Below, piece by piece: positions 43,407 to 50,446 of a DNA stretch of 64,000 nucleotides; the first letter of the stretch is position 1; each line of letters begins with the position of its first letter. Origin of the DNA: Shigella phage KRT47; sequence record MN781580. One strand, 5' to 3'. The position numbers and the translations under genes were made by a program. The notes beneath the pieces are model-generated. The model was given only the letters and a program-made list of their open reading frames with translations, made no database searches and was not told the origin of the DNA.

Positions 43407-43853
43407 TTAAAACGCTCGGTCAGAAAAAGAAATTTGAGTTTCAAGCCATTCAATATATTCTGCCGCGGCTTGCATTAAATTTCCTTCATAATCATCAATA
43501 TCTTTTTTCAACGCCGATTTAGATAATGCATATGAAATTCGTTCACCCTGAAATCCAGCTTTAGGTTTATGAAGAACTTGATCAATTCGTTCTACAACTT
43601 CTTCAATTTCGCCATTTTCTGCGGATTCAGTATTCCACAAGCACCAATACGTAATTGGCTTATCATAGATGTTAATAATCTTTCCATCAGAAAGTTCAAT
43701 TTCAATAATTCCAGTATCAGGTTCTATATCATCTTCGCATTCTTTTGCAAGTTCACGAACTTTAAAGACAGTACCTGCACTAAGTTCCGGCCAGTAATTA
43801 CACAGCCCTTTATCAGCACGATTAATTCTAAACCACTTATCTACTGCAATCAT
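43407..43853 (-). CDS. Hypothetical protein, about 148 aa
   Basis: ATG at 43851-43853; track starts at an upstream TTG. Confidence 0.5.
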   Translation of the reverse strand: MIAVDKWFRINRADKGLCNYWPELSAGTVFKVRELAKECEDDIEPDTGIIEIELSDGKIINIYDKPITYWCLWNTESAENGEIEEVVERIDQVLHKPKAGFQGERISYALSKSALKKDIDDYEGNLMQAAAEYIEWLETQISFSDRAF

Positions 43854-43976
43854 GTCCCATCTCCATATCAATTAAGTCATTTATTGTTGGTTCATTATAT
43901 ACTGTTTCTTCATCAGTGTAAACCGGTTCTTCCGGCTCTGGCTCTACAGTTTCCCATCTAGCCGCCCACCAGGGTT

Positions 43977-44297
43977 TTATAGCGTAATCCATTCTCGTAC
44001 TGTCTGAGTTACTACACGTTCATGGGGCTCGACTAGTTCAACAGTCGGAACTGCATAATACCAGTCAGAATGATAAGAACCTGACCGAGATTCATTTACA
44101 GCCACATGTACATTATGTTTTGGACTAAAGTAAACACACTGACGATATTGACATTTACCATCTTGCACCCAGTCTTCTATTTCGACAGGTTTAAGATAAT
44201 CGGAAAAATCGAAATCATAGTTTTCCGAAAATGCATCATGGTCTTCAATGATTTCGCTCAGAACTGCATCAACATCTAATTTATTTTCAATAGTCAT
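43977..44297 (-). CDS. Hypothetical acidic protein, 106 aa
   Basis: ATG at 44295-44297. Confidence 0.5.
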   Translation of the reverse strand: MTIENKLDVDAVLSEIIEDHDAFSENYDFDFSDYLKPVEIEDWVQDGKCQYRQCVYFSPKHNVHVAVNESRSGSYHSDWYYAVPTVELVEPHERVVTQTVREWITL

Positions 44298-44307
44298 TTT
44301 TCACCAA

Positions 44308-44478
44308 TTAATTTCGCAATTTATTAAGTTCTTCATAATCAATCCAGGATTCTAATCCTGATGGCAAATCAGATTCAATTTCCCAAAGAAGTTCTTCAAT
44401 TTTATGAAGACGATCTAGTTCTTCAGCAGAAATAGTAACCATTGACGGAGCTCTTGCTGCATTAATATCGTAAATCAT
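44308..44478 (-). CDS. Small hypothetical protein, about 56 aa
   Basis: ATG at 44476-44478 just after the upstream stop; track starts at an upstream GTG. Confidence 0.4.
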   Translation of the reverse strand: MIYDINAARAPSMVTISAEELDRLHKIEELLWEIESDLPSGLESWIDYEELNKLRN

Positions 44479-44480
44479 AT

Positions 44481-44696
44481 TTACCCCAGTTTGACCATGC
44501 AATCGCCGTATTTCCACTTAGAAATAGACTTTTCACCATTAGAATAATAAACTTCGAGTTTAGCGCGGCCATTTTTAATTTGAATAACCTTTGCTGTCAT
44601 CAAAGTTCCATACCCATAATAAACTGCAACCTCATCACCTACATATACCGCGCTTCCACGATAATCATGGATATAATCAGTTCCTTCGAGCATCAT
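44481..44696 (-). CDS. Small hypothetical protein, 71 aa
   Basis: ATG at 44694-44696, overlapping the nrdC stop. Confidence 0.45.
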   Translation of the reverse strand: MMLEGTDYIHDYRGSAVYVGDEVAVYYGYGTLMTAKVIQIKNGRAKLEVYYSNGEKSISKWKYGDCMVKLG

Positions 44697-44957: not shown

Positions 44958-45200
44958 TTATTCCTTAATTCCTAGTACTTGTTTAAAAGTCTCGTCGTAA
45001 TCAAGACTTTGGCCCGTTTGTTCTTTATGTTTGTATATAATATCACTTACTTCTGATAGCATATTTTTATATGAACGAGTTAAAGCAGATTTAAGCACGC
45101 TGTATCTATCAGGAAATTTACTATGTTCATTATAATAAGCTATTGCTAATTCACGGACTGCCTTTTCAGCAGTCTCCATATATTCTTTACGCTTGGTCAT
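44958..45200 (-). CDS. Hypothetical protein, about 80 aa
   Basis: ATG at 45198-45200; track N-terminus overlaps the upstream ORF in another frame. Confidence 0.4.
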
Positions 45201-45483
45201 TTTCTTCTCGGTCAAATCGGTGTTTACAATGGCGACATTTATAACGAAGATTATTAGTCTGCCAATGGACCAATTGCACCTGTTCAGTTCCACATTCAGG
45301 GCAATTAGGAACGTTTTTAGAAGCCCTTTCGCGACGTTTAACCATAGCCATAATGGCATCCCATGCTGGAGGTTTAAAATCTAAATCGTCAGTAACTAGC
45401 AGTCCTTTATCAAACCCAACGCATGGAGTCCATTCAGGAAAATCTGAAGCTTCGGCAATATCTTCTAATAAACGCTTTTTCAT
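45187..45483 (-). CDS. Zinc-ribbon protein, 98 aa
   Basis: CPECG...CRHCKH motif; ATG at 45481-45483. Confidence 0.5.
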
Positions 45484-46406
45484 TTCAGTACCTCAATAGC
45501 ATCACGTAAACCATTTGCTTTGGCGGTTAAAGCCTTAAGAACTTTAGTATGCTCTTCAATTTGTTTTTCAACTTCAATCAAACGGGCACTGAGATATTCG
45601 CGTTCTTCTTTCATAGTATCATTCCCATGATTGGGCTTTGGCGTAGATTTAAATTTACTAGGGTCCTTTAACTTAATAACAACTTTAGTTTCAAACAGTG
45701 AAAGACCATAATTCGTATTATCATCAAAGGATTCAACTACGTCCATTTTAGACAATAACGTGCGAAGATTATAAGTCAAAGAACGAATCGTTTTATTATG
45801 TTTATTAGCTTCACATGGTTTCATATATGGAAGATTTTTATATATTTCATGTGGAGCACAAACAATAATTGACAATTCAAATGGTCCATTCTGTGATGAT
45901 GGAATGAATTTAGCCGTAACCCAATCTTTTACATTTACATTAATAGTACGGTCATCGCCATGACAAAACAGTCTACGAGAATGCTTAAAAAGCATATTCA
46001 CATTATTATTAAATTCATGTGAAAACTCACTAGCAAATTTTTCTTTACTATTTTTAGAAAACCATTCTTCTAAATAAGTTCTTTTCACGTCATTAATAAT
46101 ATTAAATGTAACAACATTAGCATTTGATACATTAGTCTCAATGTAGCTTGGATACATAAATTTTTTAACATTATTAACAGCTATCACAGAAGATAGTAAT
46201 CGGGAACGTTTGAACCACTCGAGCAAAGAACCAAGAGAATGTGAATACGCATTTTGTGTATCTTTACAAATATGGTTTTCCCATCCAATATAGTCTAAAA
46301 AATCACGAAGAATATTATTGATTACTGCTCTGTGTCCTATCTGATAATTACGATGTTTAGTAATAAGACTGTCAAAATAATCAATATAATGTTTACGAGT
46401 TTTCAT
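45480..46406 (-). CDS. Paralog family protein A, 308 aa, C-terminal coiled coil
   Basis: ATG at 46404-46406; heptad-repeat tail; motifs RSRLLS and MDVV shared with neighbours. Confidence 0.6.
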   Translation of the reverse strand: MKTRKHYIDYFDSLITKHRNYQIGHRAVINNILRDFLDYIGWENHICKDTQNAYSHSLGSLLEWFKRSRLLSSVIAVNNVKKFMYPSYIETNVSNANVVTFNIINDVKRTYLEEWFSKNSKEKFASEFSHEFNNNVNMLFKHSRRLFCHGDDRTINVNVKDWVTAKFIPSSQNGPFELSIIVCAPHEIYKNLPYMKPCEANKHNKTIRSLTYNLRTLLSKMDVVESFDDNTNYGLSLFETKVVIKLKDPSKFKSTPKPNHGNDTMKEEREYLSARLIEVEKQIEEHTKVLKALTAKANGLRDAIEVLK

Positions 46407-46439
46407 GTTCTTCTCACTTGGTTAATGGTTTATACTCCG

Positions 46440-46453
46440 AGCCATCCTTGGCT
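46440..46453 (-). terminator. Short stem-loop (agcca-tcct-tggct) between paralogs B and A
   Basis: Inverted repeat read in sequence; weak terminator or processing site. Confidence 0.3.
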
Positions 46454-46458
46454 TTAAA

Positions 46459-47460
46459 TTACTTAATTAACTGTAAAGCTTGTTCAAGACGATCAAGACG
46501 ATTAACGGATTCTTCCCAAATCTTTTTAGCCTGCTCATATTCTTTCTGCGCTTTATTAGAAATTTCTAGAACTTCTTTATAAGCTTTTTCTAATGCAATA
46601 ACTTCTGGACGAATTTCTATCGGTTCAGGTGAATCATCAAGACATTCCATTAGTTCCTCAAGAGTAGTTTCTTCTTTAGGAGTATTCACAATTTCCTCAC
46701 ATTTTTGTTGATAAATTTCTTTATCAGTAGGTGAATAAGCACATTTCACTTCACGAAGACTAATTACAATTTTATATCCTTCCCATCCGCATATATTCTT
46801 AAAAGGATATGTATGAATATTTTCTACTGTTTCCATACAAAGTAATGCAGTCTCTAACTGACGAGTTATAGTGCTAGCAATTGAGAAAAATTTATTAATA
46901 TTCTTTTGGTTAGCGTTTGGTGTAAAAAATCCATAATTCACAAAAATAGCTACTTTATTTTCATCAAGCTCATATTCTTTTACGATAATCATATCAGAAG
47001 CCAAAGGATGAATTTGACGATAATCGCCATAACATAATTTAGAAGCTGATTTTAGAATTTGTCCTTTGAAAAGTCTGAAATTACTAATCCAACGACGAGT
47101 AAAAATATTCTCAGGGTCTTCTTTATTATTAAGATGATAAGAATTAACATCACCGAACCAATTATATCCTACTACATCTTTAGTTCGTTTAATTTCTTTC
47201 CCAAAATTACCAAGAATATCCCGATTAACCAAATATGAAAGAAGACGAGACTCTTTAAAGGTTTTCTTGATATTATCTTTATCTACACGGCTAGAAATTT
47301 TACGAATTTCATGAATAAATTTAGTAGAAGAAACAATACTTGCATCAACACTATTGAGCCATTGATTGATAATGGAAAGAACGATATTTTGACCAAACAT
47401 CGGTATAGCTTTATCATCAATAACGCTATTGAATGATTTGATATATTCGTTACGAGTCAT
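46459..47460 (-). CDS. Paralog family protein B, about 333 aa, C-terminal coiled coil
   Basis: ATG at 47458-47460 with GAGGAG SD; own early promoter upstream; ESRLLS motif. Confidence 0.6.
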   Translation of the reverse strand: MTRNEYIKSFNSVIDDKAIPMFGQNIVLSIINQWLNSVDASIVSSTKFIHEIRKISSRVDKDNIKKTFKESRLLSYLVNRDILGNFGKEIKRTKDVVGYNWFGDVNSYHLNNKEDPENIFTRRWISNFRLFKGQILKSASKLCYGDYRQIHPLASDMIIVKEYELDENKVAIFVNYGFFTPNANQKNINKFFSIASTITRQLETALLCMETVENIHTYPFKNICGWEGYKIVISLREVKCAYSPTDKEIYQQKCEEIVNTPKEETTLEELMECLDDSPEPIEIRPEVIALEKAYKEVLEISNKAQKEYEQAKKIWEESVNRLDRLEQALQLIK

Positions 47461-47488
47461 ATTAATCTCCTCAGTAGAAAGTAAGAAC

Positions 47489-47518
47489 ATTATACCACAT
47501 CCTTGTGGCAAAGTAAAC
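47489..47518 (-). promoter_or_regulatory. Early promoter (-35 GTTTAC, -10 TATAAT), near-identical to the one at 2418-2447
   Basis: Minus-strand GTTTAC at 47513-47518, TATAAT at 47489-47494. Confidence 0.6.
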
Positions 47519-48537
47519 TAGTTCAGTGCATTTAGTGCATTGTTCAGTTTAGAACGTTGCTTCGTGAGATTTTTGACTTTTTCTTGTGCTTTTTCTAGCA
47601 TCTTTTCAGCTTCTAACACTTCATTGGTCGCTTTAACGAGTTCATCATCTACTGCCTTAAGGGACTTCTCAATCGCATCCGCGTGCCATTTTTCAACAGG
47701 TTTAAGACTCGGATTTTCAATAGGAAGAAAATTCACTTTATTGAATTTCCATGCATCTTTATTACCTGAACTATACATCCAAAATTTAGGATCATTTGAC
47801 GAGTAATTAGATAAATTTAAGTTATCTTGCACTTCCTGCTTTTTCTCTTGCGGGACTTCGTCCTTTCTCAAAAAATCGTATTTAAATGAAACGATCATAT
47901 CAAGTTCATATGATGTTGTATCTAACTTAAATCGTTCAAAACGAGGTAAAATCTTAGATTGAACAGCAGCAACAACATCCATATACTTAAATGCTTCTGT
48001 CAACTGTGATTTAAGACATTCACAAATTGAAAGAGAATTTTTAGTATTAGGCTTAAAGCTGATTCGCGCAGTTCGATTATTTTCTTTAGATGGTCTTACT
48101 TCCATTTGAAGAGTATAACCATCAAATTTCAGATTCTTTAAGTTAATATCAGAACCTTTTAATCGACTAGCCGTAGACAAAATTTGCTTTAATTGTTTAC
48201 GGAATAAAGCAATAAATCTCCATTCAAGACGATAATGATTTGGATTATAAAATCCCGTTGATAGATCAACTTTACTTTGACCAACGCCTTGAACAAGTAG
48301 AGGATTTTTATAATCAACAGTTTTACAGAAATCCATGAGCTGTTCACGGGCAGTCATTTGCGTAATATATCCAGCTTTATCAAAATGCCGCAACCATTCA
48401 GCGCTATTCAATGAGTTAAAGTGAATATTACGTGTAACTTTATCAGGGTCTAAATTATTTTCACATAAAAATGTTATGACATTACGAGTATAACTAGCAT
48501 TACGAACCATATCTTCAATTTGAGAACGAGTTTTCAT
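47518..48537 (-). CDS. Paralog family protein C, 339 aa, C-terminal coiled coil
   Basis: ATG at 48535-48537 with AAGGA SD; YMDVV motif; heptad tail. Confidence 0.6.
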   Translation of the reverse strand: MKTRSQIEDMVRNASYTRNVITFLCENNLDPDKVTRNIHFNSLNSAEWLRHFDKAGYITQMTAREQLMDFCKTVDYKNPLLVQGVGQSKVDLSTGFYNPNHYRLEWRFIALFRKQLKQILSTASRLKGSDINLKNLKFDGYTLQMEVRPSKENNRTARISFKPNTKNSLSICECLKSQLTEAFKYMDVVAAVQSKILPRFERFKLDTTSYELDMIVSFKYDFLRKDEVPQEKKQEVQDNLNLSNYSSNDPKFWMYSSGNKDAWKFNKVNFLPIENPSLKPVEKWHADAIEKSLKAVDDELVKATNEVLEAEKMLEKAQEKVKNLTKQRSKLNNALNALN

Positions 48538-48545
48538 AGTATTCC

Positions 48546-49439
48546 TTAAAATTTAAGTAAATCGATAATTTTAATTAAATTTTCACGCTCAGATTTAGCT
48601 TTACTGCTTAATCCAGACAATCTAAAAATTTCATCATCGTATTGCTGAATAGAAATATTTAGCTCTTCTATTTGTTTACTGAAATAATCAATCTGCTCGG
48701 AATATTTTTCATTACTACGAACTGGAACGGGTTTTGTTGGCAAGTCAATCTTATTCTCATTGACTTCAACCGGACGATAAATTAAAATACAATTTGAACC
48801 AATTGGGCATTTTGCTCCAGATACATATTCTAGTGTTCCGGCTTTCTTTAAAACCTCAAAAGCTAAGCATAGATGGTATCCCATATTAGCATAATCGGTT
48901 GAATGCGCCCTGATGTAATAATCATCTTGACGAATACTAAACTTGAAGCATTTAAGTTCTTCTGTATTATTCGTTTTAAAGATCATTTGTTTATCTAGGC
49001 CTGTAGCTAATCGAGCTCCTAATGCCAACAATCGACGCTGATTTTCCCACAAATCAGTAATCATTTGATCAAATGATAGTTTTGGCATTGGACGACCGTA
49101 AAGATCATAGCCTTTGTTATAATTGCGAAGAATTTCACTTGCATTAATACGTGATAACGCTCCAATTTTATTAAGCGCTTTCATAATACGATTAGACCAC
49201 CCCATCCCAGACCCATTAGTTCGTCGCAAGTGTTTTTCTAATCTAAAGCCAATATCAATATTAAACGTATCTAAAATTTCATTACGAACATCTTGTTCAA
49301 TGATACTAAAATTAAATGTTGGGTTAAGTCTATAAAAGAGCTGATCTGCTTTATCGTGATTAAGTACAGTCCATTCATTTAATTTTTTATTAACTAAAGA
49401 TTTAATTACTGCATTAACATTATTAATTATTACTGACAT
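48546..49439 (-). CDS. Paralog family protein D, about 297 aa, C-terminal coiled coil
   Basis: ATG at 49437-49439 with GAGGAAA SD; heptad tail. Confidence 0.6.
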   Translation of the reverse strand: MSVIINNVNAVIKSLVNKKLNEWTVLNHDKADQLFYRLNPTFNFSIIEQDVRNEILDTFNIDIGFRLEKHLRRTNGSGMGWSNRIMKALNKIGALSRINASEILRNYNKGYDLYGRPMPKLSFDQMITDLWENQRRLLALGARLATGLDKQMIFKTNNTEELKCFKFSIRQDDYYIRAHSTDYANMGYHLCLAFEVLKKAGTLEYVSGAKCPIGSNCILIYRPVEVNENKIDLPTKPVPVRSNEKYSEQIDYFSKQIEELNISIQQYDDEIFRLSGLSSKAKSERENLIKIIDLLKF

Positions 49440-49449
49440 ATTATTTTCC

Positions 49450-49863
49450 TCACTCAATTTCGGTTTCAATTAATTTTGCTAGTCTAAATATAATATAACA
49501 ACAAATATAAGCACCACACACAGATTGAACTAATACCATTCCAAAGAACCAAACAATATTATCAAACAATGTCTGTTTTACGTCGAAAGGACGTAAACTT
49601 ACAGTAATATTATCGCCTTTTTCTATTGATGAATACATCTCTGGTGAAATATATTCGCTAAATCTATAACCGTCTTTGAGTTCATATACAGCAATAAACG
49701 ATAAACTAGACCCCTTTCCTTGAGTTCCTGTAAGGGTATTAACTACAGTAACATCATAATCTTTATAATGCATATAATCATTAATTGCGTAATAACCATA
49801 TGCAACTACTACACATAAACAGCATATCAATAAATTCAATCTTTTAATTATCAACTGTTTCAT
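49450..49863 (-). CDS. Membrane protein, 137 aa
   Basis: N- and C-terminal hydrophobic helices with Cys-rich segments; ATG at 49861-49863. Confidence 0.55.
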   Translation of the reverse strand: MKQLIIKRLNLLICCLCVVVAYGYYAINDYMHYKDYDVTVVNTLTGTQGKGSSLSFIAVYELKDGYRFSEYISPEMYSSIEKGDNITVSLRPFDVKQTLFDNIVWFFGMVLVQSVCGAYICCYIIFRLAKLIETEIE

Positions 49864-49895
49864 AATAATCTCAATTAAAAGGGCTTAGAACCATT

Positions 49896-49911
49896 ATACC
49901 ATCCTTGGTAT
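49896..49911 (-). terminator. Short stem-loop (atacca-tcct-tggtat)
   Basis: Inverted repeat read in sequence, upstream of the membrane protein gene. Confidence 0.3.
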
Positions 49912-49918
49912 AAAGCGG

Positions 49919-50446
49919 TTATGCGAGTACCGTCTTTAACCGTTCTTCAAATTTCCGAAGAGTGTTCTGGCGTTCAGCTCTTTGCTTTTTGTAAGTTTCA
50001 ATACGCTCTGAAATGAGAGTGTATCGTTCATTTACTGATTCTTTCATAAAATCAGGAATTTCACGAGAAGCTTTAATCTCGTCAAATTTATCAATAACTG
50101 CTTGCTCTTCAGCAATTAAGTTATCATACATCAAAATATCCTTTTTGATGAACTCAATATCTTCTTGAGTTACACGAGATAATTTAGATGCTTTATCCTT
50201 TTTGTACTGTTCGTTAGTATCACGAGACCAGTGTAATGTACGATTTTTATTCGTATTCTTGTAAATTTCTACAATACCAATCTCATCGATAATAACGATC
50301 CAATTCCAACGAGATTTGTAAATTTGTCCTCCGTCAACCGTGATTTCACCTCCGATTGAGATGTCATTAAAGAACTTGCTTTGTGCTTCAGATTTAAATT
50401 TACCATCATTGTAGTTTACCAAGTTGAAAATATCTTTAGCATTCAT
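49919..50446 (-). CDS. Hypothetical protein, about 175 aa
   Basis: ATG at 50444-50446 with GGAGGAAC SD, downstream of an early promoter. Confidence 0.55.
   Translation of the reverse strand: MNAKDIFNLVNYNDGKFKSEAQSKFFNDISIGGEITVDGGQIYKSRWNWIVIIDEIGIVEIYKNTNKNRTLHWSRDTNEQYKKDKASKLSRVTQEDIEFIKKDILMYDNLIAEEQAVIDKFDEIKASREIPDFMKESVNERYTLISERIETYKKQRAERQNTLRKFEERLKTVLA

Follow-up and report, generated by a model that had tools for sequence, protein, structure and literature searches.

The nrdC.5 gene of bacteriophage T4 is the closest described counterpart of the locus analyzed here. A T4 deletion mutant does not plate on ECOR17, nor on MG1655 into which the ECOR17 gene dsr1 was introduced, and plasmid-borne nrdC.5, which its authors term an early gene, restores infection of MG1655 with dsr1 (Srikant et al., eLife 2022, PMC9391042). 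The TPR sensor of Dsr1 is reported to recognise a phage major capsid protein (2026 preprint, PMC12803255). The window studied here, a stretch of 64,000 nucleotides from Shigella phage KRT47 (record MN781580), carries a syntenic ortholog of this gene (47518-48537, minus strand) of equal length, 91% identical and belonging to the same family, DUF7235. It lies in an array of four adjacent open reading frames (ORFs), all on the minus strand (45480-49439), which are called below by the names of their T4 orthologs nrdC.3, nrdC.4, nrdC.5 and nrdC.6. By profile comparison nrdC.3, nrdC.4 and nrdC.5 are demonstrably homologous and go back to a common ancestor, and nrdC.6 is probably a distant member of the same superfamily. 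On balance we favour, with reservation, the view that the array encodes early binding proteins with coiled-coil tails that neutralise host immune proteins, a role that is published for nrdC.5 and that we extend to the other three.

A functional analogue is DSAD1 of an SPbeta phage, which is likewise devoid of enzymatic motifs and is reported to block the SIR2 NADase DSR2 by binding to it directly. It differs in its target (DSR2 instead of Dsr1) and in a host of another phylum, and the coiled-coil tail and multi-domain architecture are features of the array proteins. Profile searches of all Protein Data Bank (PDB) sequences, among which DSR2-DSAD1 complexes are expected, returned nothing at E values up to 1, hence no detectable relationship to DSAD1 in sequence, and none in structure was seen for nrdC.6. 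The T-even dmd-tifA-adfA 'anti-TA island' and gp49.2 likewise consist of early, small-to-medium accessory genes in variable regions; each gene neutralises one host system, is dispensable in laboratory strains and is lost or amplified under selection. Gp49.2 inhibits the OLD defence nuclease/system, and OLD pressure leads to amplification of the segment from gp49.1 to nrdC.1 (PMC13096335). Those islands are composed of unrelated genes, whereas the nrdC.3-nrdC.6 array contains at least three adjacent paralogs.

Three homologous genes and their T4 orthologs

The predicted products of nrdC.3 (45480-46406, 308 amino acids), nrdC.4 (46459-47460, 333 amino acids from its ATG), nrdC.5 (339 amino acids) and nrdC.6 (48546-49439, 297 amino acids from its ATG) match exactly gp87, gp88, gp89 and gp90 of KRT47, the first under accession QHB43115. 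Many T4-like phages share the 5-kb block at 92-94% identity, and the window is that of a Tequatrovirus. In T4 the four genes, flanked by nrdC.2 and nrdC.7, follow one another as they do here; identity is 96% for NrdC.3, 97% for NrdC.4, 91% for NrdC.5 and, over 260 amino acids, 82% for NrdC.6, and gene order and flanks agree with T4 and PP01. Judged by identity and order, the four genes are one-to-one orthologs of T4 nrdC.3 to nrdC.6. An earlier examination of the window from its letters alone (the sequence-only reading) had described four consecutive genes of one strand, as found here, and had left undecided whether T4 has equivalents. It does, one for one, which applies in part what that reading had named as grounds for refutation, orthology to T4 proteins of known function; a characterised function comes with just one of the four, nrdC.5.

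At the level of pairwise BLASTP, similarity among the four proteins is significant only between nrdC.3 and nrdC.4 (23% identity over 264 amino acids, E 4.5e-5), and NrdC.5 shares only about 15-25% identity with its paralogs. Family profiles, which comprised 28, 61, 53 and 99 homologs for nrdC.3 to nrdC.6, were compared with hhalign. The nrdC.3 and nrdC.4 profiles align with a probability of 98% (E 7e-14, 211 columns) and the initial profiles of nrdC.4 and nrdC.5 at 45% (E 2.3e-4, 245 collinear columns); alignments with the nrdC.6 profile were weak. After enrichment with syntenic homologs (Dhakavirus Bp7 gp194, Mosigvirus JK42 gp91, gp92 and gp90, and the metagenomic proteins P0057, P0258 and P0261), the combined nrdC.3/nrdC.4 profile aligns with that of nrdC.5 at 97.1%, with E 6.5e-11 over 246 collinear columns. 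The nrdC.5 sequence alone scores 65.2 against the nrdC.3/nrdC.4 profile and the best of 48 decoys, taken from forward and reversed window proteins, 27.7; chance similarity of the three was rejected on this test. P0261, which came from an exhaustive HMMER search, bridges the families by matching nrdC.4 at 96% and nrdC.5 at 76%. The exhaustive search with the nrdC.3/nrdC.4 profile did not reach the nrdC.5 and nrdC.6 families directly. The nearby genes nrdC.2, nrdC.7, nrdC.8, nrdC.9 and nrdC.10 were tested for membership and none belongs to the family. The short motifs quoted in the sequence-only reading do exist (KRSRLLS in nrdC.3, KESRLLS in nrdC.4, MDVV in nrdC.3 and nrdC.5, METV in nrdC.4 and FEVL in nrdC.6), and its claim of four divergent paralogs stands for nrdC.3, nrdC.4 and nrdC.5; for nrdC.6 it is plausible and unproven, the direct profile scores being not significant.

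These relations extend the existing classification. The nrdC.5 product matches PF23882 (DUF7235) over residues 1-339 at E 3.1e-120 and 401.7 bits (cut-off 30). Those of nrdC.3 and nrdC.4 match phrog_1435 (E 1e-100 and 1.5e-169) and belong to PF26897 (Phage_T4_Y04OP), whose model is not in the local Pfam copy and was assigned through homologs, all of which, at 78-98% identity, carry a precomputed PF26897 match. The nrdC.6 product matches phrog_2257 at E 6e-133, and PF26899 (Phage_T4_Y05B) is carried by all of its 105 homologs, one of which is 99% identical to the protein of the window. Pfam and PHROGs thus already unite nrdC.3 with nrdC.4, as we do, and give nrdC.5 and nrdC.6 a family each. The firm link of nrdC.5, and the tentative one of nrdC.6, to the first two is partly new: the genes themselves are known and the connection was not found in the literature searched.

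Many phage records label these genes 'thioredoxin', the T4 ORFs otherwise being 'hypothetical'. An identity as thioredoxin or glutaredoxin was rejected, neither Pfam nor NCBIfam giving such a match, and the label appears to derive from the nrdC.x gene names. A listing of clusters at 90% identity places nrdC.4 (333 amino acids) and nrdC.5 (339 amino acids) together despite the absence of BLASTP similarity between them, which is probably an artefact of clustering or reporting.

Architecture and the position of nrdC.6

The four families are predicted to have a common architecture. A variable helical domain at the N-terminus is followed by a long helix, which closes with A-[SR]-[KR]-L..G.D, then by a beta unit, a linker without order, and a conserved C-terminal coiled-coil tail with the ending L-x-x-A-[LI]-x-x-L-[KN]. 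In the AlphaFold2 (AF2) models of both nrdC.5 and nrdC.6 the order of elements is helical N-terminal domain, long helix, beta-beta-alpha-beta-beta, disordered linker and terminal helix; the nrdC.5 model is of low confidence (pLDDT 60.9, pTM 0.38) and that of nrdC.6 has a pLDDT of 77.9. The beta unit of nrdC.5 (47884-48111, minus strand) covers residues 143-218 with a pLDDT of about 60-80, and MDVV lies just past its helix; in nrdC.6 (48777-48947, minus strand) it covers residues 165-221, with FEVL at the end of the helix.

The sequence-only reading had noted heptad-repeat tails in all four proteins, which the hydrophobicity of the a and d positions bears out, together with the AF2 helices of nrdC.5 and nrdC.6. 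In the last 42 residues of each protein 75-92% of a/d positions are L, I, V, M or A, against 17-23% at the other positions; for the nrdC.5 tail the heptad score is 0.92 against 0.17. All on the minus strand, the tails are residues 267-308 of nrdC.3 (45483-45608, ending LRDAIEVLK), residues 292-333 of nrdC.4 (46462-46587, ending LEQALQLIK), a C-terminal long helix of residues 280-339 in nrdC.5 (47521-47700, ending LNNALNALN; AF2 helix 280-338, 59 residues, pLDDT 76-91) and a C-terminal helical hairpin of residues 247-297 in nrdC.6 (48549-48701, ending LIKIIDLLKF; AF2 helices 247-273 and 278-296, 27 and 19 residues). In every genus examined the members of all four families end in L-x-x-[AI]-[LIV]-x-x-L-[KN], 0-2 residues from the stop. 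Given this periodicity within a long helix, the tails are predicted to be coiled coils.

Conservation is distributed differently along the proteins of each family. Alleles of nrdC.3 keep the N-terminus and the tail (identity 0.82-0.88; tail 0.82) and diverge in the middle (0.40-0.53). In the nrdC.5 family conservation peaks in the beta unit (0.96-0.99 identity), and homologs of nrdC.6 share 0.09-0.32 in the N-terminal 90 residues, 0.28-0.44 in the beta unit and 0.75-0.77 in the tail. Scans with Pfam, NCBIfam and PADLOC gave no informative domain, the near-matches being coiled-coil noise (BrxC, PgrA, RacA), and no enzyme motif or known fold was found in the four proteins; that no catalytic motif was recognisable by eye agrees with the domain and profile scans. 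A Foldseek search of BFVD with the poor nrdC.5 model was uninformative, returning weak, low-TM matches and not recovering its own family.

Several results weigh against a place for nrdC.6 in the superfamily. Its profile aligns with that of nrdC.3/nrdC.4 at 1.2-13% and with that of nrdC.5 at 8-11%, none of these values being significant, and at 1.2% and 8% when the Tegunavirus bridge is excluded; its sequence alone scores 15.4 against the nrdC.3/nrdC.4 profile, which equals the decoy mean. With the nrdC.6 model, the significant Foldseek matches are its own family and full-length proteins of 304-335 amino acids at 11-17% identity, from T4-like phages of Pectobacterium, Enterobacter, Acinetobacter and Yersinia; no Tequatrovirus representative of nrdC.3, nrdC.4 or nrdC.5 is recognisable among the top 50. 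Together with its standing as a separate family in Pfam and PHROGs, these results would suit an array in which only three genes are paralogous and nrdC.6 is an unrelated neighbour, alike in architecture only, that gained a coiled-coil tail independently; the comparison of its architecture with that of nrdC.5 is one of secondary-structure order only, with a low-confidence nrdC.5 model. We consider this alternative doubtful and favour membership because five observations speak for it. The order of elements is identical in the two AF2 models. The weak alignments consistently pair FKESRLLSYLVNRDILGNF of nrdC.4 with LNKIGALSRINASEILRNY of nrdC.6, and ILKSASKLCYGDYRQ with LLALGARLATGLDKQ, the motifs so paired being K-x-G/R-x-L-S...A...L-x-N-F/Y and A-x-R-L..G.D. 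Tegunavirus gp94 scores 33.5 against the nrdC.6 profile and 35.3 against that of nrdC.3/nrdC.4, above all 84 decoys (maxima 22.2 and 27.7); building a profile from gp94 itself brought no gain, its family consisting of three phages at 83-100% identity. The C-terminal ending is common to the four families, and nrdC.6 adjoins an nrdC.5-like gene in three genera.

The nrdC.6 gene of the T4 reference NC_000866 (locus L002, 9000-9200, compared with 48546-48701 of the window) is annotated with 275 amino acids and ends in QIEELIFLFNNMMMKFSDYLD, the coiled-coil tail NISIQQYDDEIFRLSGLSSKAKSEREKLIKIVDLLKS lying there in a different reading frame; in T4 record MT984581 the gene is intact, with 296 amino acids. 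The out-of-frame tail and the intact copy indicate a one-base frameshift in the reference, by sequencing error or strain difference.

Distribution, variation and proposed role

The family is restricted to T4-like phages. The nrdC.3/nrdC.4 profile, searched exhaustively against 1.84 billion representatives, gave 11 clusters, and the matches labelled 'bacterial' lie on contigs of ~167 kb that are phage genomes. In a phage collection tblastn matched 653 records for nrdC.3, 553 for nrdC.4, 583 for nrdC.5 and 741 for nrdC.6. Copy number varies between relatives, a possibility that the sequence-only reading had wished to see checked: Dhakavirus Bp7 lacks nrdC.3 and carries nrdC.6, a gene like nrdC.5 (98% probability) and nrdC.4, Mosigvirus JK42 lacks nrdC.4 and carries genes like nrdC.6, nrdC.5 (98%) and nrdC.3, both with the gene order conserved, and all four are present only in Tequatrovirus. 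As a consequence, an ancestral state of three genes is probable, and the nrdC.3/nrdC.4 pair arose either by an old duplication or by recombination that placed two lineage variants in tandem.

Matches of nrdC.3 fall into bands of identity, with 139 records at 90% or more, 358 at 60-80% and 156 below 60%, the last including the Mosigvirus orthologs. The ratio of non-synonymous to synonymous substitution rates (dN/dS) was calculated for comparisons of the window with T4, with PP01 or with a metagenomic relative. It amounts to 0.08-0.29 for the four genes and to 0.00-0.04 for genes 49, nrdC, nrdC.8 and nrdC.10; other neighbours, such as nrdC.2 and nrdC.7, share the raised range of the array. Positive selection is unsupported by these gene-wide values. 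The synonymous divergence of the window nrdC.6 (dS ~0.82) points to an old allele gained by recombination, not to fast local evolution. The overall pattern is one of relaxed or diversified evolution with exchange of alleles. A diversifying family, as the sequence-only reading had it, holds in this weaker form, through copy number, identity bands, variants with deletion or fusion and raised dN/dS; in the stronger sense it does not, the gene-wide ratio being well below 1.

Some variants have altered arrays. In a metagenomic T4-like genome of 167 kb (locus L006, 3570-4900; also L007) ~1.7 kb are deleted from nrdC.5 ~codon 271 to nrdC.3 ~codon 134, with ~18 nt of overlap at the junction; nrdC.4 is lost, an nrdC.5::nrdC.3 chimera of 299 amino acids (P0056) is formed, and the nrdC.5 N-terminus is also frameshifted into an ORF of 115 amino acids. 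P0056 occurs on four contigs, and the two loci that were read (ENA and Logan samples) share the deletion arrangement. In the nrdC.6 protein of Shigella phage Sf25 (P0153, 378 amino acids) a segment of 82 residues (IRAHSTDY...NKQIEEL) is repeated exactly, in tandem and in frame. The segment takes in the helix of the beta unit with its final two strands, the linker and the first part of the tail; the duplication may be a real structural variant or an assembly artefact. The Tegunavirus fHe-Yen9-01 of Yersinia has two dispersed relatives (locus L003, 16382-17323 and 9459-10337) and no array: gp94, which is nrdC.6-like and bridges to the nrdC.3/nrdC.4 profile, and gp111 (313 amino acids), which adjoins an nrdC.10 homolog. 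The only signs of kinship of the latter are a Foldseek match of the nrdC.6 model (E 1.3e-4, TM 0.40), assigned to gp111 by its length of 313 amino acids, and a similar C-terminal tail.

The window's nrdC.5 may be expected to counteract Dsr1 too, because it is 91% identical to T4 NrdC.5, the allele for which the activity is known; most of the differing 9% falls in the N-terminal domain and in the linker. In the mechanism that we propose, the array proteins would be made early and act as stoichiometric, non-enzymatic binders that oligomerise through their C-terminal tails as a common module. NrdC.5 would occupy Dsr1 before the late major capsid protein triggers NAD depletion, and nrdC.3, nrdC.4 and nrdC.6 would be paralogous counter-defence factors against other defence proteins or variants, their specificity being set by the variable N-terminal and beta domains. 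The variation of the array, seen in identity bands, unequal record counts, raised dN/dS, the deletion chimera and tails that are better conserved than the middle and N-terminal parts, resembles that of an arms race and counts in favour of this proposal. The host-takeover, decoy or exclusion function suggested by the sequence-only reading came close to this; exclusion has to be dropped, as the activity described for nrdC.5 is counter-defence directed at Dsr1 (PMC9391042).

Some points count against this proposal. Functional data exist for nrdC.5 alone; the literature searched gave no later mechanistic work on nrdC.5 and no functional work on nrdC.3, nrdC.4 or nrdC.6. Inhibition by direct binding of Dsr1 is our assumption, tail-mediated oligomerisation is suggested by the heptad pattern only, and gene-wide dN/dS below 0.3 is no proof of positive selection. 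The published phenotype without a mechanism, the silence of the literature on the other three genes and the lack of a fold or domain that indicates a particular target would also be compatible with a real family whose primary role is not counter-defence, in which the proteins act early in host takeover or in regulation, for instance as scaffolds for host or phage complexes, and nrdC.5 affects Dsr1 indirectly, for example through the timing or level of its trigger or through NAD metabolism. We regard this as unlikely. The genes are dispensable in laboratory hosts and nrdC.5 matters only on a host that carries Dsr1; their presence is patchy, with strongly divergent alleles, and confined to T4-like phages; and an anti-OLD gene already lies in the neighbourhood. 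These features are typical of counter-defence and not of core takeover. The adjacent, co-oriented genes, with a similar tail pattern and an identical C-terminal register in all four products, might also encode subunits of a single hetero-oligomer, held together by these tails and directed at one target. This is highly improbable: plasmid nrdC.5 by itself is sufficient for rescue, related genera carry three members in differing combinations, the record counts of 553 to 741 imply many genomes that lack one member, and there is a natural variant without nrdC.4 and without parts of nrdC.3 and nrdC.5.

Beyond a role of the array in neutralising host immune proteins, we put forward as a speculative extension that the proteins are modular immune antagonists specific to T4-like phages, whose tail oligomerises and whose exchangeable N-terminal and beta domains retarget paralogs and alleles to different host pattern-recognition proteins; candidate targets would be variants of the capsid-sensing TPR sensor common to Dsr1, Avs7 and other effectors. 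If this were true, the array would serve as a toolbox, reshuffled by recombination, that determines host range, and nrdC.3, nrdC.4 and nrdC.6 would be three anti-defence genes yet to be discovered. Most accessory genes of the reference phage T4 are without assigned function, and nrdC.5 is the only anti-Dsr1 factor that we found reported. The paralogy of nrdC.5 with two or three of its neighbours turns three proteins recorded as 'hypothetical' or mislabelled 'thioredoxin' into anti-defence candidates that can be tested cheaply, and it predicts which parts would give specificity (the N-terminal and beta domains) and which would be the common module (the tail). Possible uses are the engineering of host range in therapeutic T4-like phages and the search for the defence systems that are targeted.

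Expression signals and neighbouring genes

The genes are separated by gaps of 52 nt (nrdC.3-nrdC.4), 57 nt (nrdC.4-nrdC.5) and 8 nt (nrdC.5-nrdC.6), and the G+C content of the array, 29-35%, is similar to that of its flanks. Shine-Dalgarno-like motifs (GAGAAG, GAGGAG, AAGGA and GAGG) stand 5-9 nt upstream of the four ATGs, in agreement with the sequence-only reading, which had given each gene its own. The mechanical ORF list starts nrdC.6 at a TTG (49469) and nrdC.4 at a TTG (47511) that falls within a promoter-like element. This element (47489-47517, minus strand), which lies in the 57-nt gap directly upstream of nrdC.4, consists of GTTTACT, 17 nt and TG-n-TATAAT and looks like a T4 early promoter by its match to the consensus, as had been proposed for one gene of the array. 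Its core ACAAGGATGTGGTATAAT has an identical second copy at 2418-2435. A generic promoter scan of the window gave 30 matches against 28.5 expected from shuffles, which is no enrichment. The region upstream of nrdC.7 (49847-49920, minus strand) reads ccaaggatggtataat and is similar to the early promoter of nrdC.4, and the gap 5' of nrdC.3 (46407-46458, minus strand) holds gccaaggatggctcggagtat, apparently a degenerate promoter copy; within this same gap the scan flags a small plus-strand hairpin (46437-46451).

The T4 record annotates pin as an inhibitor of the host Lon protease. With pin against Lon and gp49.2 against OLD, the block therefore already contains host-antagonist genes. The gp49.2 ortholog of the window (43977-44297, minus strand) is 96% identical to that of T4 and is called 'ribonucleotide reductase' in the T4 reference record. 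Divergence from T4 is mosaic along the block: nrdC.2 (45187-45483) is 66% identical and pin (43407-43871) 82%, and genes 49, nrdC, nrdC.1, nrdC.8, nrdC.9 and nrdC.10 are 98-100% identical. The product of nrdC.8 (49919-50446) ends in a heptad-like helix (ETYKKQRAERQNTLRKFEERLKTVLA) without profile similarity to the family; one 2026 paper names this gene 'nucleotide reductase' from its gene name, which looks like another misannotation derived from a name. Finally, T4 gene 49.3 is replaced in the window by two small ORFs (44308-44696), as in phage PP01.

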